Origin: a virus
Taxonomy: Duplodnaviria > Heunggongvirae > Uroviricota > Caudoviricetes
IMG/VR virus record: IMGVR_UViG_2778261065_000001
Span: 1-5,145 of that record
DNA length: 5,145 nt
Strand: one strand, 5' to 3'
Position 1 is the stretch's first letter. Each line of letters begins with the position of its first letter. The notes beneath the pieces are model-generated. The model did not search any database and was not told the origin of the DNA. It was given only the letters and a program-made list of their open reading frames with translations. Shown here in pieces: positions 1 through 5,145 of the stretch. A program made the translations under genes and the position numbers.

Positions 1-94
1 TTTCAGGGAAGTAATCCATTTCGACTATAACTGACAGGTCATCACGACGTATGACTGCGTATTTGCAACTAAATAGTTTCTTTATTTTTTCCAC
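1..94 (-). CDS. Hypothetical protein, 5' fragment only; gene continues beyond the left window edge
   Basis: Minus-strand frame open from a GTG at 94..92 to position 1 (VEKIKKLFSCKYAVIRRDDLSVIVEMDYFPE...), with GGAGG at 103..99 just upstream (spacer only 4 nt). In-frame stop at 151..149 limits any upstream extension. Too short in-window for the ORF track; no family recognised. Confidence 0.25.
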   Translation of the reverse strand, partial: MEKIKKLFSCKYAVIRRDDLSVIVEMDYFPE

Positions 95-177
95 GATGCC
101 TCCGAGTTTATAAGTACAAACGGTTATATCCACATAGAGACAAAAATATTAATCTGAAAAATATTTATTTCACGCCG

Positions 178-244
178 TATATTTGATTATTTAATGTGCA
201 GGTACAATGACTTTTATTTTTTGTTGTGTATATAATCAAATATA
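178..244. repeat. 13-bp perfect inverted repeat (TATATTTGATTAT / ATAATCAAATATA) with 41-bp spacer in AT-rich intergenic DNA
   Basis: Read directly: 178..190 tatatttgattat is the exact reverse complement of 232..244 ataatcaaatata. The right arm contains a consensus TATAAT (231..236, plus strand). Confidence 0.6.
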
Positions 245-279
245 TGGTTATTTTTCACCCTGCGCATTCAGCGCGCAAC

Positions 280-300
280 AAAAAACCCGCCGAAGCGGGT
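280..300 (-). terminator. Intrinsic terminator of the hok transcript
   Basis: On the minus strand: stem CCCGC / GCGGG (300..296 and 291..287) with a UUCG tetraloop, followed by a run of 7 U (286..280). Sits ~70 nt downstream of the hok stop. Confidence 0.8.
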
Positions 301-368
301 TTAGTGCGGGTGCGTTGAGGATGCCTGACACATGAGAGGTGGCGAGGGATTTCCCCCCGCCTGGTCTC

Positions 369-524
369 TTACTCCTCAGGTTCGTAAGCTGTGAAGACAG
401 CGACCTCCGTCTGGCCGGTTCGGATTCGTACCTCGCAGAGGTCTTTCCTCGTTACCAGTGCCGTCACTATGACGGTTAAACAGATGACGATCAGGGCGAT
501 TAACATCGCCTTTTGCTGCTTCAT
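369..524 (-). CDS. hok: Hok/Gef-family type I toxin (small membrane peptide), 51 aa
   Basis: ATG at 524..522, stop TAA 371..369. Product MKQQKAMLIALIVICLTVIVTALVTRKDLCEVRIRTGQTEVAVFTAYEPEE matches the Hok/Gef pattern (hydrophobic TM helix, conserved ...RKDLCEV.IR.G..EVAVF.AYE) and is near-identical to HokD/RelF as I recall it. AAGGAG lies 9 nt upstream. Confidence 0.9.
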   Translation of the reverse strand: MKQQKAMLIALIVICLTVIVTALVTRKDLCEVRIRTGQTEVAVFTAYEPEE

Positions 525-581
525 AGCCTGCTTCTCCTTGCCTTTCGGCACGTAAGAGGCTAACCTACATTTGTGAGACAT
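369..581 (-). CDS. mok: Mok-like in-frame leader ORF overlapping hok (modulator of killing), 70 aa
   Basis: Six-frame ORF 369..581; ATG at 581..579 preceded by GAGG at 593..590. The N-terminal extension MSHKCRLASYVPKGKEKQA resembles the MokC extension (MLNTCRVPLTDRKVKEKRA) as I remember it. Its start region is exactly where the predicted Sok RNA is antisense. Confidence 0.6.
   Translation of the reverse strand: MSHKCRLASYVPKGKEKQAMKQQKAMLIALIVICLTVIVTALVTRKDLCEVRIRTGQTEVAVFTAYEPEE
538..566 (+). promoter_or_regulatory. Putative sok promoter (-35 TTGCCT 538..543, 17-bp spacer, -10 TAACCT 561..566)
   Basis: Hexamers read on the plus strand, antisense to the hok start region. Same arrangement as the R1 sok promoter, which is embedded opposite the hok RBS. 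Predicted TSS about 573..575. Confidence 0.45.
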
Positions 582-645
582 AGATTGGGCCTCAGATTAA
601 TGTTAAGCGTCTTGCAGGACGCGTAATGTTAACTGGGGCTTTTCT
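573..645 (+). ncRNA. sok: Sok-like antisense RNA (type I antitoxin), about 70 nt
   Basis: Predicted from the promoter at 538..566. Single-stranded 5' tail about 573..588, then a long imperfect hairpin 589..639 (outer stem GCCUCAG/CUGGGGC with one G-U; inner stem closing on loop UUGCAG 612..617), then UUUUCU at 640..645. Antisense to the mok SD and start codon. Confidence 0.5.
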
Positions 646-692
646 CTGTCTGCCTTACAGTGGCATGCCCGAGGCAGACAGCCTCAAGCACC

Positions 693-712
693 CGCAGCAA
701 TCTTACCGATAC
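693..712 (-). promoter_or_regulatory. Putative hok/mok promoter: -10 TAAGAT (705..700), TSS near 693
   Basis: TAAGAT lies 6 nt upstream of GGGUGCUUGAGG (693..682), which resembles the 5' end of R1 hok mRNA and pairs with the 3' fbi element. No convincing -35 hexamer found. Confidence 0.35.
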
Positions 713-862
713 CGATAAGAAAACGCTATTTTTTATTGCCAGCACCTTCTATCCAGGCTAATTTATCTGCGTCAGAACGGCGCAATGCGCTCGCCTGAGA
801 TACGTTTACTTGCCATGGTAACAACAGATAACGGCAATTGTTGTTTCTGTTTTGTTTCCTTC

Positions 863-893
863 AAAAACCCCGGACCATCAATCCGGGGTTTTT
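863..893. terminator. Bidirectional intrinsic terminator between the phage operon and the hok cassette
   Basis: Stem CCCCGGA (868..874) / TCCGGGG (882..888), 7-nt loop, flanked by AAAAA (863..867) and TTTTTGTTTG (889..898). Gives a U-tract in either direction. About 85 nt downstream of the DUF551-like stop. Confidence 0.65.
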
Positions 894-978
894 GTTTGTT
901 ATCCCCAGCGGCAAATCGAATACACCATCAGCGCCACCGCCATTGCGATTCCTGCCGTTGTGAACGCTTCAGGCCAGG

Positions 979-1551
979 TCATTGATTCACCTCCTGCGGT
1001 GGTTCCGGTAGCGGCATCCAGTGAGTTGCCTGCTCAATACCATTACCCGGCTTAATCGTTGCTTCTCCTCGCCGGAATGTGCTTCCTGTATAGCGTGCGG
1101 AGCATATTAGCGGTTCAACCAGAGAGCTATCGAAATTCACCGAAATAAGCACGTTCTGGCCCTTTTCAGGCATTCGATCACTACAGCTTATCCAACTATC
1201 CGGAGTTCCCGGAGTTGGTCCATCGAATTCGGGCATGTCAGGACCTTTTCTGATAGCTTTAGCCAGCTCCAGCGGGTCATCGTAAAGCCAGTCGCCAGTT
1301 TGTGGGTGATTTGCTTCTGCAAGCTGCGCAGCCCATTCAAGACCATCTTTTTGACCTTGGAGATAATCAAGCGGCAACTCTTCATGATTACTTGCAGGTT
1401 CTGCACTATCAGCTTCGCGCCGCTTCTGTAGCTCTGCTGCCATCGCTCTCACGACTTCAACTGGTGCCCTTGCAGCAAACTCTATGTTGGTGATCAGCTC
1501 ATTAAGATATTGCTCGCTGGGATACTGTTTCTTATCGGTTATAGTGGTCAT
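979..1551 (-). CDS. DUF551-like phage protein, 190 aa
   Basis: ATG 1551..1549 with AAGGTG 8 nt upstream; stop TGA 981..979. C-terminal region DSWISCSDRMPE ... ATHWMPLPEPP matches the DUF551 signature as I recall it (WIS..DRLPE ... THWMPLPEPP). Confidence 0.75.
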   Translation of the reverse strand: MTTITDKKQYPSEQYLNELITNIEFAARAPVEVVRAMAAELQKRREADSAEPASNHEELPLDYLQGQKDGLEWAAQLAEANHPQTGDWLYDDPLELAKAIRKGPDMPEFDGPTPGTPDSWISCSDRMPEKGQNVLISVNFDSSLVEPLICSARYTGSTFRRGEATIKPGNGIEQATHWMPLPEPPQEVNQ

Positions 1552-1553
1552 AG

Positions 1554-1745
1554 CTATTTCACCTTAATCTCAACATTTCGCAGCTTTAGCTCTACTGGCA
1601 GGTCTGACTTTCCGGTTAATGCTAATGCGAGATTTTCTGGAGTAATGAGAGCCGTTATTGTTTTCCCCATCGACAGACGAATAATCATTCGTATCTCGCG
1701 ATCGTCACATGCTCCCGGTCGAACAATTGAGATTTGTCCGTTCAT
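1554..1745 (-). CDS. Hypothetical small phage protein, 63 aa
   Basis: ATG 1745..1743 with AAGGAG 6 nt upstream; 1 nt after the upstream gene's stop; stop TAG 1556..1554 lies 2 nt before the next ATG. No family recognised. Confidence 0.65.
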   Translation of the reverse strand: MNGQISIVRPGACDDREIRMIIRLSMGKTITALITPENLALALTGKSDLPVELKLRNVEIKVK

Positions 1746-1746
1746 C

Positions 1747-2151
1747 TCACTCTCCTTTGATGCGAATGCCAGCGACGCGTAGTGCGTGTTCTAAGTCAAT
1801 CAGGCAAAGCCAGCTGCCATTTTCTTTAGGTATCATGACATGTCGCTTATCAGCATTTATTGGGTGCCCATATCGAAGGTCGTAGCGAGTCGGTAATTGA
1901 ACTTCCCTCGCTTCCAGTTCTGTAATGCGTCTGTCTTTAGCTTCTATTTCATCCAGCAGTGCCAGCACGGTTTCTGGTCCGGCCAGAAATTTGAAGGCGT
2001 TGAGCGCATCAATATCCACACCGTAATCTTTAAGTTCCTGTTCACTTATCAGATCATCATCAACTGGCAACATTAACAGGCGTTCCATTGCCGGAATTGC
2101 ACGTTCTGCCGCCTCACGCAGCGCCAGTGTGTCGATGTCGATTTTGCTCAT
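1747..2151 (-). CDS. Ead/Ea22-like phage protein, 134 aa
   Basis: Preferred start ATG 2151..2149 (GGAGG, 4-nt spacer), overlapping the upstream stop as ATGA. The ORF-track start at 2175 would overlap the upstream gene by 28 nt. N-terminus MSKIDIDTLALREAAERA and motif VLALLDEIEAKDRRITELEA resemble Ead/Ea22-like prophage proteins. Confidence 0.7.
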   Translation of the reverse strand: MSKIDIDTLALREAAERAIPAMERLLMLPVDDDLISEQELKDYGVDIDALNAFKFLAGPETVLALLDEIEAKDRRITELEAREVQLPTRYDLRYGHPINADKRHVMIPKENGSWLCLIDLEHALRVAGIRIKGE

Positions 2152-2381
2152 TGTGCCTCCTCGATTTCGTCCCATTCCACCCAGGCATTCTCTCCATCAG
2201 CATCGATTTCACCTTTGTGACCGCATTTGGAACAAACGGCCTCATCACCCGCCCACAAAGAATCTTTGGTTACCGACCATCCTGTTACCTTGGCTTTGCC
2301 GTGCTGGCACTTAGGGCAATCATCAAGCCATTCGACTTCGACCGTTGAAGGACCAAATCCATGTTCAGTTCGGATGCTCAT
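2148..2381 (-). CDS. Small zinc-ribbon protein (CxxC...CxxC), 77 aa
   Basis: Preferred start ATG 2381..2379 with AAGGAG 7 nt upstream, overlapping the upstream stop as ATGA. The track's 118-aa ORF starts at a TTG (2504) with no SD and overlaps the upstream gene. Product MSIRTEHGFGPSTVEVEWLDDCPKCQHGKAKVTGWSVTKDSLWAGDEAVCSKCGHKGE... has two CxxC pairs 23 residues apart. Confidence 0.7.
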   Translation of the reverse strand: MSIRTEHGFGPSTVEVEWLDDCPKCQHGKAKVTGWSVTKDSLWAGDEAVCSKCGHKGEIDADGENAWVEWDEIEEAQ

Positions 2382-2584
2382 GACTGAACTCCTTTGCGAA
2401 TCTGTTCCGCACAATGCAGCAGGGCGTCCGTCGCTTCTTTCACCGTAACGATGTCGCCATCGTCCAGTCCTGCAATTTTTGCGTGCCTGACAAACGCCGC
2501 GCAAAGGTCGTTAAACGCCCCTGCCCGCACATCCGCCAGGAAAGCGTTGGCAGCAGCCAATTCTTGGTAGTCAATCCCGCTCAC
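2378..2584 (-). CDS. Hypothetical small phage protein, 68 aa (GTG start)
   Basis: Preferred start GTG 2584..2582 with GGAGG 7 nt upstream, overlapping the upstream stop TGA (2583..2581) as GTGA. The track's 91-aa ORF begins at an upstream GTG (2653) that would overlap the preceding gene by 73 nt. No family recognised. Confidence 0.55.
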   Translation of the reverse strand: MSGIDYQELAAANAFLADVRAGAFNDLCAAFVRHAKIAGLDDGDIVTVKEATDALLHCAEQIRKGVQS

Positions 2585-3003
2585 TGTGCCACCTCCTGAA
2601 AATTCCCCTGATAAAACGCCAGCACGCGCTGCATAACTTCGCTCTTCCTGCACTCGCGACAGATTATGTTCAGACGCCTGTCGTAGCGGCGTATTTCTCC
2701 GTCTGGTAATGACCAGATAAGGTCCGGATCAACCACAACCGTTTTTTTCACCTTTGCCCTGGATAGTTTTTTGCGGGCGTTTTGCCAGTCCTTACGCGCC
2801 TGCTCAGACGGGAATAATCCGTAGCCTGAATTGTAAACATCACCACTGGCGACCAGTTCTCTGGCGAGAGTGCTTATGTAATACCTTGATGCACCGGTTT
2901 TAACCTCCAGAGCCCGTAACGTCTCGCGACCGCTCAGACGTACAAGTTCAACAACCTGCCCTTTAATTTTTTCTCGCTCTTCTGGTGTAAATACTTTTGC
3001 CAT
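2581..3003 (-). CDS. Hypothetical phage protein, 140 aa
   Basis: Preferred start ATG 3003..3001 with GGAGG 5 nt upstream; the track ORF start at 3018 is a TTG. Stop TGA 2583..2581. N-terminal region VELVRLSGRETLRALEVKTGASRYYISTLAREL looks HTH-like (inference); C-terminus has one CxxC. No family assigned. Confidence 0.7.
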   Translation of the reverse strand: MAKVFTPEEREKIKGQVVELVRLSGRETLRALEVKTGASRYYISTLARELVASGDVYNSGYGLFPSEQARKDWQNARKKLSRAKVKKTVVVDPDLIWSLPDGEIRRYDRRLNIICRECRKSEVMQRVLAFYQGNFQEVAQ

Positions 3004-3018
3004 AGGTGCCTCCGGCAA

Positions 3019-3780
3019 TCACTTTTCCGACACAATACGACTGGAGGAATCGAAAATATGTCGAACAATATCCCGGTGCTTGTTCAGCTCCCGCAGCGCG
3101 GCGCAGATTCGCTCCCACTTCTGGACATGATTTTTCGCCCGACGCAGTTCGCGGTTTGCCATATGCAGCGATGGTAAAACCAGGTCATCCGCTCGCGTTT
3201 CAGTAAACGATGGCAGCGACTGCACAATGTCCGCCACCGTTTCTGTTTTAATATCTTCCTGTGTTGCAGCCTCCTGTACTGGTAACGCAACACCTGTGGG
3301 CTGAGGAAAGGCCTTACCATCAGTTTCCGCTACCGATGCTGCTTTCGGCTCTGCTGGTAAATTATCGCCCGGTATGCAGTAACGAAATTTACCGTTCTGG
3401 TTTACGCGAATCAGGCGTCCTTTGCTGATAGCCATTGCCAGCGTTGAAGCTACTTTGCGTGATGTGGTACCGAACAATGTAGCCAACTCATCCGCCGTTT
3501 GTGGCCCACGTTGTTCAATCGCCGCAGTTAAATCGCACTCCGAAATTTTCGCGACTGTTGCCGTGGTGGTTTCTTCCGGCAGTTCTGCCTGCTCTGGCTG
3601 TTCCTGCTGAACGTTGTTATCAGCCACACGCCAGGTGTACGCGCTTTTATCAACAAAACCAGCCTTTTTCAGTTCCCACAGCTCGTTCAGTACCTCTTCA
3701 CGACTGATATCAAGTCGCGCAGCCAGTTCTACCGACGTGGCTTTTCCCATTGCTTTCAGTGCGTCAAAAACAGTCTCCAT
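3019..3780 (-). CDS. Phage protein with two predicted winged-helix-like segments, 253 aa
   Basis: Preferred start ATG 3780..3778 with GGGAGG 8 nt upstream, 22 nt after the DnaC-like stop. The track start at 3831 would overlap the DnaC-like gene by 29 nt. Segments [28 protein letters not shown] and [31 protein letters not shown] look like winged-helix motifs, separated by a Q/E/P/T-rich linker. Fold assignment is inference. Confidence 0.7.
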
Positions 3781-3802
3781 TAAAATTTCCTCCCGGTAAA
3801 AA

Positions 3803-4549
3803 TCACTTCGCAATTCCTGGCTGGACGACATTCGGACGCCAGCTCTCCCAGTTAAAATTCACCCATCGCCCGCCGTTCATGGTCATGCGATCCATAATCC
3901 TCTCGCCGAGCAATGTTTTCATGGCCTCATAGTTCAGGTTTGTCAGCATCCCCACGCTGCGCATCGACGCTGTCCGGCGATCAACAATCTGGTGCAGCAC
4001 CACCTGCTCGTTTTTTGTCTCGCGCTGAATGCCAATTTCATCAAGAACCAGCAGATCCACTTCGCACAGCTCCCGCAAAAATTTTTCGCCTGACTGCCCG
4101 TCGTCATAGCTGGCGTGCAGGGCGCTCATAACATCAGCCACGGTAACCACAATCACTGTCTGACCGTCTTTCAGCAGGCGATTCCCGATAGCTGCCGCTA
4201 AGTGATTCTTCCCGGTACCAGGTTTTCCGCTGAACGCAAAATTTGTACACCCGGTCATCAGTTCATCGGTGATGGATTTCGCCTGGCTTAACGCGTATCG
4301 CTGGCCGTCGTTCTGCACCTGGTAATTCGCAAACGAGCATTTACGGTGCAACGGCTGGATGCCAGAGCGATTCAGAATTTTTTCCACCCGCAACTGATGA
4401 TTCAGGCGGTTGATCTCCTCGCAACGTTTCTGGCCTTCAGCAAGTTGCCACTCACGCCACTCCGCAACCGTTCTGAATGGGGCGGTTACATGTGGTGGGG
4501 TCAGTCTGCGGATACGCTCCAGAACGCCGCCTGTCGCAATATTTTTCAT
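3803..4549 (-). CDS. DnaC-like replicative helicase loader (phage P-like AAA+ ATPase), 248 aa
   Basis: ATG 4549..4547, stop TGA 3805..3803. Walker [18 protein letters not shown] and Walker [10 protein letters not shown]. End-to-end resemblance to E. coli DnaC (245 aa; e.g. CSFENY / [16 protein letters not shown] / MLTNSN..LLGERVMDRM), recalled from memory. Confidence 0.9.
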
Positions 4550-4555
4550 GGTCTG

Positions 4556-5145
4556 TTACCCCCTGAAGCCTGGCGGGATCGCACTGTCCGGCAACGAGAC
4601 GGTGTTAACCTGTCGGAGCAACGTCTCAGGCCGAACACCTTTCGGTGCGAACAAGCCCTGGTATTCATTGGCGATGCTGTGTCGAATCACCTGCTCAGGT
4701 GTAAAACCCTGCTGACGGAATTTTTCCAGTTCCCGTATCGCCCCGTTAGCGCCCTGCTCCGTTCGAATCGGTTTTCGCAATGCCTGTCTGAACCGGACCC
4801 ACTCATGCCAGAGTGTTTCCGGCAACCAATCAGGCAGCTCAATAGCCTCCGGCTCGAATTTTTTAGACGCTCGTTTTTGGCGAGGGGGATTTAGGGGGAG
4901 ATCAGTATTTAGATCTTCCTCTTCCTCTTCCTCTGGTAACGCTTTTTGATCCGTTTGTGTAACGCTGGCAGCGTTACCTTTTCGTTTCAGTTCGCGTATT
5001 TTTGTAACTCGCTCGTTTGTAACCGCCCGTTTTTTAGAGCTTTTTCCGTTATGACGTTCAAAGTTAGGTAGAGAAAGCCCAACGTCATTTTCGACCAGCC
5101 ATCCAACCTGAATTAACGCATCAGCAAAACCAGCCATAAAAGTGA
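4556..5145 (-). CDS. Replication initiator / replisome-organizer-like protein with C-terminal DnaT-like domain; probably 5'-truncated by the window edge
   Basis: ORF 4556..5137 (193 aa in window), stop TAA 4558..4556, 6 nt before the DnaC-like start. C-terminus RQVNTVSLPDSAIPPGFRG closely matches the C-terminus of E. coli DnaT (..RDVNTVSEPDSQIPPGFRG). No in-frame stop or SD in the 8 nt upstream of the first ATG (5137), and the gene holds iteron-like repeats, so the true start is probably outside the window. Confidence 0.8.
   Translation of the reverse strand, partial: TFMAGFADALIQVGWLVENDVGLSLPNFERHNGKSSKKRAVTNERVTKIRELKRKGNAASVTQTDQKALPEEEEEEDLNTDLPLNPPRQKRASKKFEPEAIELPDWLPETLWHEWVRFRQALRKPIRTEQGANGAIRELEKFRQQGFTPEQVIRHSIANEYQGLFAPKGVRPETLLRQVNTVSLPDSAIPPGFRG
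4936..5023. repeat. Iteron-like cluster: five GTAAC/GTTAC motifs in 88 bp, including a 19-bp perfect palindrome
   Basis: Plus-strand GTAAC at 4936, 4959, 5004, 5019 and GTTAC at 4973. 4959..4977 = GTAACGCTG-G-CAGCGTTAC (9-bp arms, 1-bp spacer). Several copies are preceded by CGTTTG on the plus strand. Lies inside the initiator-like gene. Confidence 0.45.

Follow-up and report, generated by a model that had tools for sequence, protein, structure and literature searches.

We analysed a stretch of 5,145 nucleotides (nt) from a virus of the Caudoviricetes (IMG/VR record IMGVR_UViG_2778261065_000001, positions 1 to 5,145; the whole stretch is referred to here as the window), focusing on a run of small, tightly packed genes on its minus strand. 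An earlier note on this DNA had picked out five of these genes, spanning 1554-3003, as a translationally coupled run lying between a replication module and a terminator. The first of them, at 2581-3003, specifies a 140-residue protein of the DUF977/Ren family and begins with an ATG behind the Shine-Dalgarno (SD) sequence GGAGG. It is followed by the g68 gene (68 residues, 2378-2584), whose GTG start overlaps the preceding stop codon as GTGA and which is served by the SD AGGAGG, by the g77 gene (77 residues, 2148-2381; ATGA overlap, SD AAGGAG), by the Ead134 gene (134 residues, 1747-2151; ATGA overlap, SD GGAGG) and, after a gap of 1 nt, by the g63 gene (63 residues, 1554-1745; SD AAGGAG). In each of the five cases an SD of the GGAGG or AAGGAG type lies 5-8 nt before the start codon. 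A sixth gene, specifying a DUF551 protein of 190 residues (979-1551), starts after a gap of only 2 nt beyond the g63 gene; it is a member of the same run, though it falls outside the part that the earlier note had covered.

Several lines of evidence indicate that the five tightly coupled genes with good SDs are real, as the earlier note had maintained. In addition to the junctions themselves, independent pipelines had called genes of 140, 68, 77, 134, 63 and 190-193 residues at matching relative positions in all eight of the contigs we fetched, and identical calls exist in at least 24 public contigs. Moreover, the ratio of nonsynonymous to synonymous polymorphism (pN/pS) was below 1 in the more diverged comparisons (0.09-0.21 for DUF977, 0.19 for g68, 0.04-0.62 for g63 and 0.43 for Ead134); g77 was uninformative by this measure because its DNA relatives among the fetched loci are all near-identical. 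Protein relatives of g63 and g77 with 57-80% identity occur in Enterobacter, Citrobacter, Cronobacter, Klebsiella, Serratia and Pectobacterium. The sequence is already in public databases, the window being 99.96% identical to a public draft-genome contig (L009) and the exact 68-residue protein being indexed in 43 blocks of a public collection. Open reading frames (ORFs) on the plus strand inside the span, such as those at 2088-2348 and 2227-2448, were regarded as mere shadows, antisense to the conserved genes of the minus strand. A sequence scan flagged no minus-strand sigma-70-like promoter inside the run, and the sole terminator-like match there (2857-2845, with a 5-bp stem) is no better than chance.

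The window comes from a Rac-like lambdoid prophage of E. coli and corresponds to its early-right (PR-type) operon. Along it lie a fragment of ydaU (O-like), the DnaC-like ydaV, ydaW (DUF1627), the five-gene span, a hairpin terminator, the sok RNA and hokD. In eight longer contigs the order reads cI-like repressor, ydaS, ydaT, ydaU, ydaV, ydaW, DUF977, the cassette, hok, DUF1367, YbcO, the Q-like DUF1133 and holin; the nin-equivalent genes (DUF1367, YbcO and the Q-like DUF1133) therefore lie beyond hok, outside the five-gene span. The placement of the run in an early operon downstream of the replication module was thus correct, but the terminator follows the DUF551 gene and not the 63-residue gene.

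Comparison of the window by blastn with two other loci (L001 and L002) delimited a swapped cargo segment of ~1.6 kb at 983-2579. Positions 1-982 and 2580-5145 align at 96-98% identity with a Rac-like prophage (E. coli 12089), whereas 983-2579 remains unaligned, and the two breakpoints (982/983 and 2579/2580) coincide with the stop codons of the DUF551 and DUF977 genes. The DUF977 gene belongs to the backbone because it is 94-96% identical at the nucleotide level to Rac-like prophages that bear other cargo. Such other cargo was compared at L001, L017, L018 and L019, where the slot between DUF977 and hok held three unrelated hypothetical genes, a g68-like gene with a sce7726/beta-family pair, an XF1762-family gene with others, or a DUF4014 gene with an HNH endonuclease; in one of the prophages compared a Doc-family toxin lies just past hok. 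From the breakpoints and these alternative fillings it follows that the run is made up of one backbone gene (DUF977) and four genes of a swapped five-gene cassette, rather than of five genes forming a single unit as had been proposed, the fifth cassette gene being the previously omitted DUF551 gene. The DUF977-hokD slot in Rac-like prophages is a hot-spot of cargo exchange.

All five proteins match PHROG families (E = 1e-23 to 1e-45) and two of them match Pfam, so the statement that three had no assignable family does not stand. The genes belong to accessory families that are already known from lambdoid phages, though largely uncharacterised, and the cassette encodes a putative C-terminal module of EaE, a putative EaG/Lar-like zinc ribbon, a short Ead/Ea22 protein, a PHROG-1222 protein and an EaA-like DUF551 protein. 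A scan of the five proteins against NCBIfam returned nothing beyond weak zinc-ribbon noise, and PDB sequence searches with the five proteins, the DUF551 protein and a g77 profile gave chance matches only (lysozyme and CupB2, for example). A permissive Rfam scan of 900-3100 yielded only a chance CRISPR-DR match (E = 0.76). No family in PADLOC-DB 2.0, which models defence systems and not anti-defence, was matched at E up to 0.01 by any of the five proteins or by the DUF551 protein.

The 140-residue protein matches PF06163 (DUF977) with 99.1 bits against a cut-off of 22.1, its residues 1-136 covering profile positions 1-134 of 134, and it matches phrog_142, annotated as a Ren-like exclusion protein, with E = 3e-45. 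In order to compare it with λ Ren we used a DUF977 profile built from diverse full-length representatives and searched against a database of 28 proteins. This profile scored λ Ren at 29.2 bits (E = 1e-9) in a collinear match, to which the C-terminal stretch contributed 23.8 bits and the N-terminal stretch 4.1 bits; by BLASTP the 140-residue protein and Ren are 55% identical over 20 residues. The C-terminal Ren motif of the 140-residue protein reads N-I-I-C-R-E-C-R-K-S-E-V-M-Q-R-V-L-A-F-Y. Position agrees as well, in that the gene is distal to the replication genes in a PR-type operon (ydaU-ydaV-ydaW-DUF977 on one strand), where λ has O-P-ren. Mutants of λ lacking ren function are Rex-sensitive, and protection against Rex exclusion is the classical, defining phenotype of ren. 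In λ, ren is transcribed from PR together with O and P, and Ren and Rex proteins interact in two-hybrid tests (bioRxiv 10.1101/2021.04.19.439022). The label LygF, which some records attach to DUF977, designates a locus in the Sdf region of Salmonella Enteritidis, and the literature under that name mostly concerns fish lysozyme. The DUF977 family is narrow, since an exhaustive search for representatives gave only 104 clusters, many of them fragments.

An AlphaFold2 model of the DUF977 protein suggests that its N-terminal part is a winged-helix-like domain. The predicted local distance difference test score (pLDDT) was 84-92 for residues ~10-70, which are modelled as three helices and a hairpin, and 55-68 for the C-terminal half. 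Foldseek comparison of the model with the PDB gave nothing at E up to 0.001, with proteins containing a winged helix-turn-helix appearing at E of ~0.01-0.1; the best local superpositions, none of them significant, were on the winged-helix domains of BirA, PhnF, GntR and IclR proteins. An earlier profile analysis had likewise called DUF977 a winged helix (PMC2686095).

The first cassette gene, g68, matches phrog_27745 (E = 9e-41) and also the C-terminal parts of phrog_368, phrog_492 and phrog_614. By tblastn it is 65-78% identical to genes annotated as Eae or Ead in 23 phage records, and by BLASTP it matches the C-terminus of P22 EaE (E = 5e-5, 31.5% over 92 columns), covering only the C-terminal ~65 residues of the 165-residue EaE. 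Both proteins end in the tail RKGVQS, and the full end of g68 is EQIRKGVQS (tails are written here up to the stop codon). These similarities point to g68 as a stand-alone C-terminal module of P22 EaE/'Eae' and of some Ead/Ea22-like proteins. A g68 homologue of 66 residues (91.5% nt identity) also occurs at L017:3492-3692, coupled directly to DUF977 and followed by wholly different cargo. Because of this copy, g68 can move either with the backbone gene or with the ea cassette.

Four cysteines of g77 (C22, C25, C50 and C53, in the pattern CPKC...CSKC) are invariant in 20 homologues. The protein is 33% identical to P22 EaG over 58 residues by BLASTP (E = 3e-6), and it also matches the C-terminal part of phrog_4446. 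The Lar_restr_allev profile (PF14354, cut-off 28.6 bits) was matched over nearly its whole length by five of the 20 members of the g77 clade at 17.5-27.6 bits and by P22 EaG at 23.0 bits, while K-12 RalR scored 53.5 bits, and hhalign placed g77 and RalR over 46 columns in the same order with a probability of 14%. The g77 protein thus appears to be an EaG-like four-cysteine zinc ribbon whose kinship with the Lar/RalR family stays below the threshold. In Rac, RalR/Lar acts as a DNase toxin, and it had earlier been linked to restriction alleviation (PMC4041452).

The assignment of the 134-residue protein to the Ead/Ea22 group, already made in the earlier note, is borne out by its match to PF13935 (Ead_Ea22), which scored 62.3 bits against a cut-off of 27, with residues 6-85 on profile positions 3-90 of 139. 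By BLASTP it also matches the N-terminal part of λ Ea22. In λ, Ea22 is a tetrameric, mosaic protein with an N-terminal segment, a coiled coil making up over half of its length and a variable C-terminal domain, the last of which was solved by nuclear magnetic resonance as a mixed alpha-beta dimer (PMC10834534). In an alignment of Ead134 with λ Ea22, P22 EaD and a 212-residue relative, residues 1-68 of Ead134 were identical to the 212-residue relative. The block RERNQQYIKRRDQENEDIALTVGKLRVELE... (RERNQQYIK...VELE), which is present in the other three proteins, is absent from Ead134. Only a short coil, IEAKDRRITELEARE, is retained in Ead134, so that a central coiled coil comprising over half of the protein is lacking. 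At the C-terminus only the last ~8-12 residues (AGIRIKGE) align with λ Ea22, the domain being otherwise different, and Ead134 had no PDB sequence match at E up to 1. The tail AGIRIKGE is that of λ Ea22, and the tail of P22 EaD, AGIKVKGE, is near-identical. The DNA is mosaic as well, 1948-2413 and 1537-1780 being 99.4% and 94% identical, respectively, to another locus (L004) and the middle being unrelated.

The g63 protein belongs to PHROG 1222 and is modelled as a small beta-sheet with one helix (pLDDT 80.6). Proteins resembling the g63 model in BFVD come from Escherichia phage vB_EcoS_ACG-M12 (65 residues, 32% identity) and Erwinia phage vB_EhrS_49. The g63 domain also exists as a fusion, since a 201-residue protein of Escherichia phage 'bob' contains a segment 70% identical to it. 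The DUF551 protein matches PF04448 with 78.3 bits, and by BLASTP it matches the C-terminus of P22 EaA (E = 8e-9) and P22 orf87 (E = 4e-11).

Gene neighbourhoods were surveyed in the best 80 of 228 viral contigs encoding a g63 relative. The g63 gene lay behind recombination genes in 28 of these 80 loci, behind DUF2303-yfdR in 25 and behind replication genes in 21, the remaining six being unclassified. A DUF551/EaA-type gene lay downstream of g63 in 70 of the 80 loci and a recognisable Ead-type gene was present in 59, DUF977 was found once, and neither g77 nor g68 was found in any of the 80 g63-bearing viral loci (a positive control was included). The order g77-Ead-g63-DUF551 does occur elsewhere: it follows replication genes in a Uetakevirus and yfdR/Eae in another E. 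coli prophage. In the Stx phage P13374, Ead-g63-DUF551 lies between exo and xis. The stable core is thus Ead-g63-DUF551, which recurs in early-left and early-right operons, while g68 and g77 are rare add-ons. No other gene accompanies Ead-type genes (on its upstream side) and DUF551/EaA-type genes (on its downstream side) as constantly as g63 does. We considered and rejected a conserved five-gene block, as g68 and g77 were in none of the 80 g63 loci and no complete E. coli genome held at least 80% of 1554-2600 together at one place. The genes for Ead134, g63, g68 and g77 are of the 'ea' or exo-xis type and are found most often outside the replication operon. The run is not of the nin type: a BLASTP comparison of the five proteins with the λ and P22 Nin proteins (NinB, D, E, F, H and X) gave nothing better than E = 0.4.

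The junctions of the run share a further feature, in that the last codons of a gene double as the SD of the next one (QEV as CAGGAGGTG, KGV as AAAGGAGTT, EEA as GAGGAGGCA and KGE as AAAGGAGAG). Because these last codons spell the SD of the following gene, each downstream gene is probably translated by coupling. The tails AGIRIKGE and RKGVQS are common to otherwise unrelated λ and P22 proteins, and such SD-bearing gene tails may serve as recombination linkers. A repeat search found a 28-nt direct repeat (family D1) at 969-996 and 2571-2598, with 71% identity between the copies, that lies on both cargo breakpoints. One copy forms the 3' end of the DUF551 gene (..PQEVNQ) and the other that of the DUF977 gene (..FQEVAQ), and the SD CAGGAGGTG is embedded in both. 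The repeat could be a chance two-copy match.

Downstream of the cassette, within the 1-982 backbone, a terminator scan found a GC-rich hairpin of 13 pairs, 7 of them GC, at 862-894, ~85 nt past the DUF551 gene. Its arms are CAAAAACCCCGGA...TCCGGGGTTTTTG, and it reads CCCCGGA-loop-TCCGGGG-TTTTT on the minus strand. Since A-runs and T-runs flank it on both sides it could terminate in both directions, and it is likely a bidirectional intrinsic terminator that closes the early transcript. The hairpin is placed where P22, after its replication genes, has an annotated terminator ('L2; similar to phage lambda').

The fixed downstream edge of the cargo slot is formed by a complete hokD/sok type I toxin-antitoxin locus (369-693, minus strand), in which the Hok/Gef ORF matches PF01848 (E = 3e-23) and the sok antisense RNA matches Rfam RF01794 (118 bits); a strong terminator follows at 283-302. 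Directly upstream of the five-gene span lies ydaW (DUF1627; 3019-3831, minus strand), which has two winged-helix-like regions. Its longest ORF overlaps the end of the ydaV gene by 29 nt, and relatives are called from an internal Met (253 residues). The K-12 ydaW was reported among the prophage-gene 'blockers' of RcaT, the toxin of retron-Sen2 (bioRxiv 10.1101/2020.06.22.160242). In K-12 Rac, a cryptic prophage, ydaW is truncated and a deletion follows it.

Building on how the genes are arranged and coupled, on their families, on the mosaic breakpoints and on the recurrence of Ead-g63-DUF551, we consider it highly probable that the span combines a Ren-family backbone gene with a transplanted ~1.6-kb 'ea'-type accessory cassette, both lying distally in the early-right operon of an E. 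coli prophage of the Rac type. A single polycistronic early transcript would begin at a cro-like promoter, take in the replication genes, ydaW, the Ren homologue and the cassette, and end at the hairpin at 862-894, with ribosomes re-initiating at each junction. The products would be non-essential early accessory proteins. By analogy with λ, the Ren homologue may act at or near the replication complex and shield the phage from Rex-type exclusion, and the Ead/Ea22-type protein and its partners may bias the lysis-lysogeny decision in the manner of λ Ea22, which favours lysogeny (PMC7093339). The zinc ribbon g77 might act on DNA or on restriction, as Lar/RalR does.

Several points weigh against this account. 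The homology with Ren is strong over the last ~25 residues only, the winged helix-turn-helix part aligning weakly (4 bits). The model of the DUF977 protein comes from a shallow alignment (relatives at least 90% identical) and is of low confidence past residue 80, and the C-terminal half is without a fold match. The pro-lysogenic analogy may not transfer, because Ead134 is without the central coiled-coil block, which accounts for more than half of λ Ea22. Finally, the g63 model gave no informative fold match, and g77 itself did not match Lar_restr_allev at E up to 0.1, its relatives staying below the Pfam cut-off.

The alternative closest to the earlier note, that these are nin-like host-takeover, anti-restriction or anti-defence genes of partly undescribed function that neutralise the immunity of the host or of a resident prophage early in infection, is possible but on balance rather unlikely. 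The idea of such a slot stands in so far as this is an accessory exchange site that holds defence-like genes in other prophages; the homology of DUF977 with Ren, the distant kinship of g77, whose clade borders the Lar family, and the reported blocking of a retron toxin by the neighbour ydaW (bioRxiv 10.1101/2020.06.22.160242) also speak for it. However, BLASTP gave no similarity to the Nin proteins, there was no fold match to a known inhibitor, and the characterised relative of the cassette, Ea22, influences the choice between lysis and lysogeny and is not known to have a role in defence. The search of PADLOC was empty too, though its models are of defence and not of anti-defence. With that search empty and informative fold matches lacking, the expectation that this is a likely site of undescribed function has not gained in strength.

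It is also conceivable, though unlikely, that the products form one multi-protein assembly in which an Ead/Ea22 oligomer is the scaffold, g68, g63 and the DUF551 protein are separate versions of C-terminal domains that are fused to it elsewhere, and coupling sets the stoichiometry. In its favour, phrog_368 is matched at its N-terminus by Ead134 and at its C-terminus by g68, and ORF15 of P13374 joins an Ead N-terminus to a C-terminal module of the EaE type (only weakly seen in pairwise BLASTP, E = 6e-4). Likewise, DUF551 is fused in the Ea22 variant V2, while 933W has the Ea22 C-terminal domain split off as a separate gene (PMC10834534; PMC8614690), and the adjacency of Ead, g63 and DUF551 is kept across three genomic contexts. 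That adjacency may, however, simply result from recombination at conserved linkers at the gene ends; the g63 loci surveyed contained neither g68 nor g77, and Ead was recognisable in only 59 of the 80. An extension of this idea, which we regard as improbable, is that the Ead/Ea22 scaffold, g63 and DUF551, together with the split-off g68 and g77, constitute one portable system, a coiled-coil oligomer presenting exchangeable effector domains (as fusions or as coupled genes) that could be deployed from either early operon, for the control of lysogeny or against host immunity, with the tails (QEVxQ, KGVQS and IKGE, each before the stop) as swap linkers.

A prophage defence or toxin-antitoxin-like module that protects the lysogen, with the zinc ribbon as a RalR-like DNase toxin, seems very improbable. 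The hot-spot does adjoin hok/sok, genes of the Doc or sce7726/beta type occur at or near the slot in other prophages, and RalR is a DNase toxin (PMC4041452), but no PADLOC family was matched and the same genes occur in early operons of phage isolates. Moreover, the cassette genes should be silent in a lysogen, because they lie in a repressed early lytic operon and have no promoter of their own. A last reading takes the small ORFs for artefacts of gene calling or for the decaying remains of a cryptic prophage, as the cryptic state of K-12 Rac with its truncated ydaW and ensuing deletion might suggest; one could add that selection on g77 is not measurable at the DNA level with near-identical relatives only among the fetched loci. 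This reading is largely refuted and has hardly any probability left, given that every ORF is intact and has an SD site, that the diverged comparisons gave pN/pS values below 1, that proteins are conserved across genera with invariant cysteines, and that homologues occur in sequenced phage isolates.

The favoured account, a Ren-family gene joined to an ea-type cassette, clarifies what this stretch is, as opposed to a set of family-less nin genes; its practical value is modest and it does not overturn current understanding. It indicates that ea-type genes operate from either early operon and that Ead, g63 and DUF551 travel together and are sometimes fused. At most two aspects may be mildly novel, namely the portable Ead-g63-DUF551 unit and the SD-bearing tails as possible linkers. 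The gene group is very common in prophages of E. coli and of Shiga toxin-producing E. coli, and its relatives in λ influence lysogeny and hence the induction of Shiga-toxin prophages.

Among known systems, the nin region of λ (ninB-ninI) resembles the run only in its rough place on the map, which in both cases is between the replication genes and Q, and in having small genes. The resemblance of g77 to Lar/RalR would lie in a putative small four-cysteine zinc ribbon and in the apparent motif order CPxC...CxxC...acidic stretch...A-x-x-x-W. It differs from RalR in a 17-residue N-terminal extension and in its setting, the RalR gene being in the early-left operon beside recT, and Rfam detected no RalA-like antisense RNA here. 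The λ Ren protein has 96 residues as against the 140 of the DUF977 protein here, the difference being an extra middle segment of ~45 residues; ydaW (DUF1627) is interposed between the DnaC-like gene and DUF977; the replication module is of the ydaU/ydaV type and not O/P; and no Rex system is known in the setting of the DUF977 gene. Both proteins nevertheless have a helix-turn-helix-like N-terminal part and the C-terminal pattern C-x-E-C-R-x-S-x-x-M-x-R-V-L-A, and both genes sit just past the replication genes in a PR operon with a terminator further on.

The cassette as a whole compares best with the ea region of P22 and the exo-xis region of λ. In those phages the genes lie between the recombination genes and xis/int, whereas here they belong to the early-right operon, behind the replication genes and the Ren homologue. 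The g68 gene would correspond only to the C-terminal module of EaE, the EaG-like gene is upstream of Ead here but downstream of eaA in P22, g63 is without sequence similarity to P22 EaI, and Ead134 differs from λ Ea22 in having neither the central coiled-coil block nor the λ C-terminal domain. Set against these differences, the order of an EaE-like gene, an Ead/Ea22-like gene, a gene of ~63 residues in the position of eaI and a DUF551/EaA-like gene is collinear with eaE...eaD-eaI-eaA of P22. The C-terminal tails RKGVQS and AGIRIKGE are held in common, and in both settings the genes are small, overlapping, early and of the non-essential type, with the same mosaic shuffling of domains that characterises the Ea22 variants.

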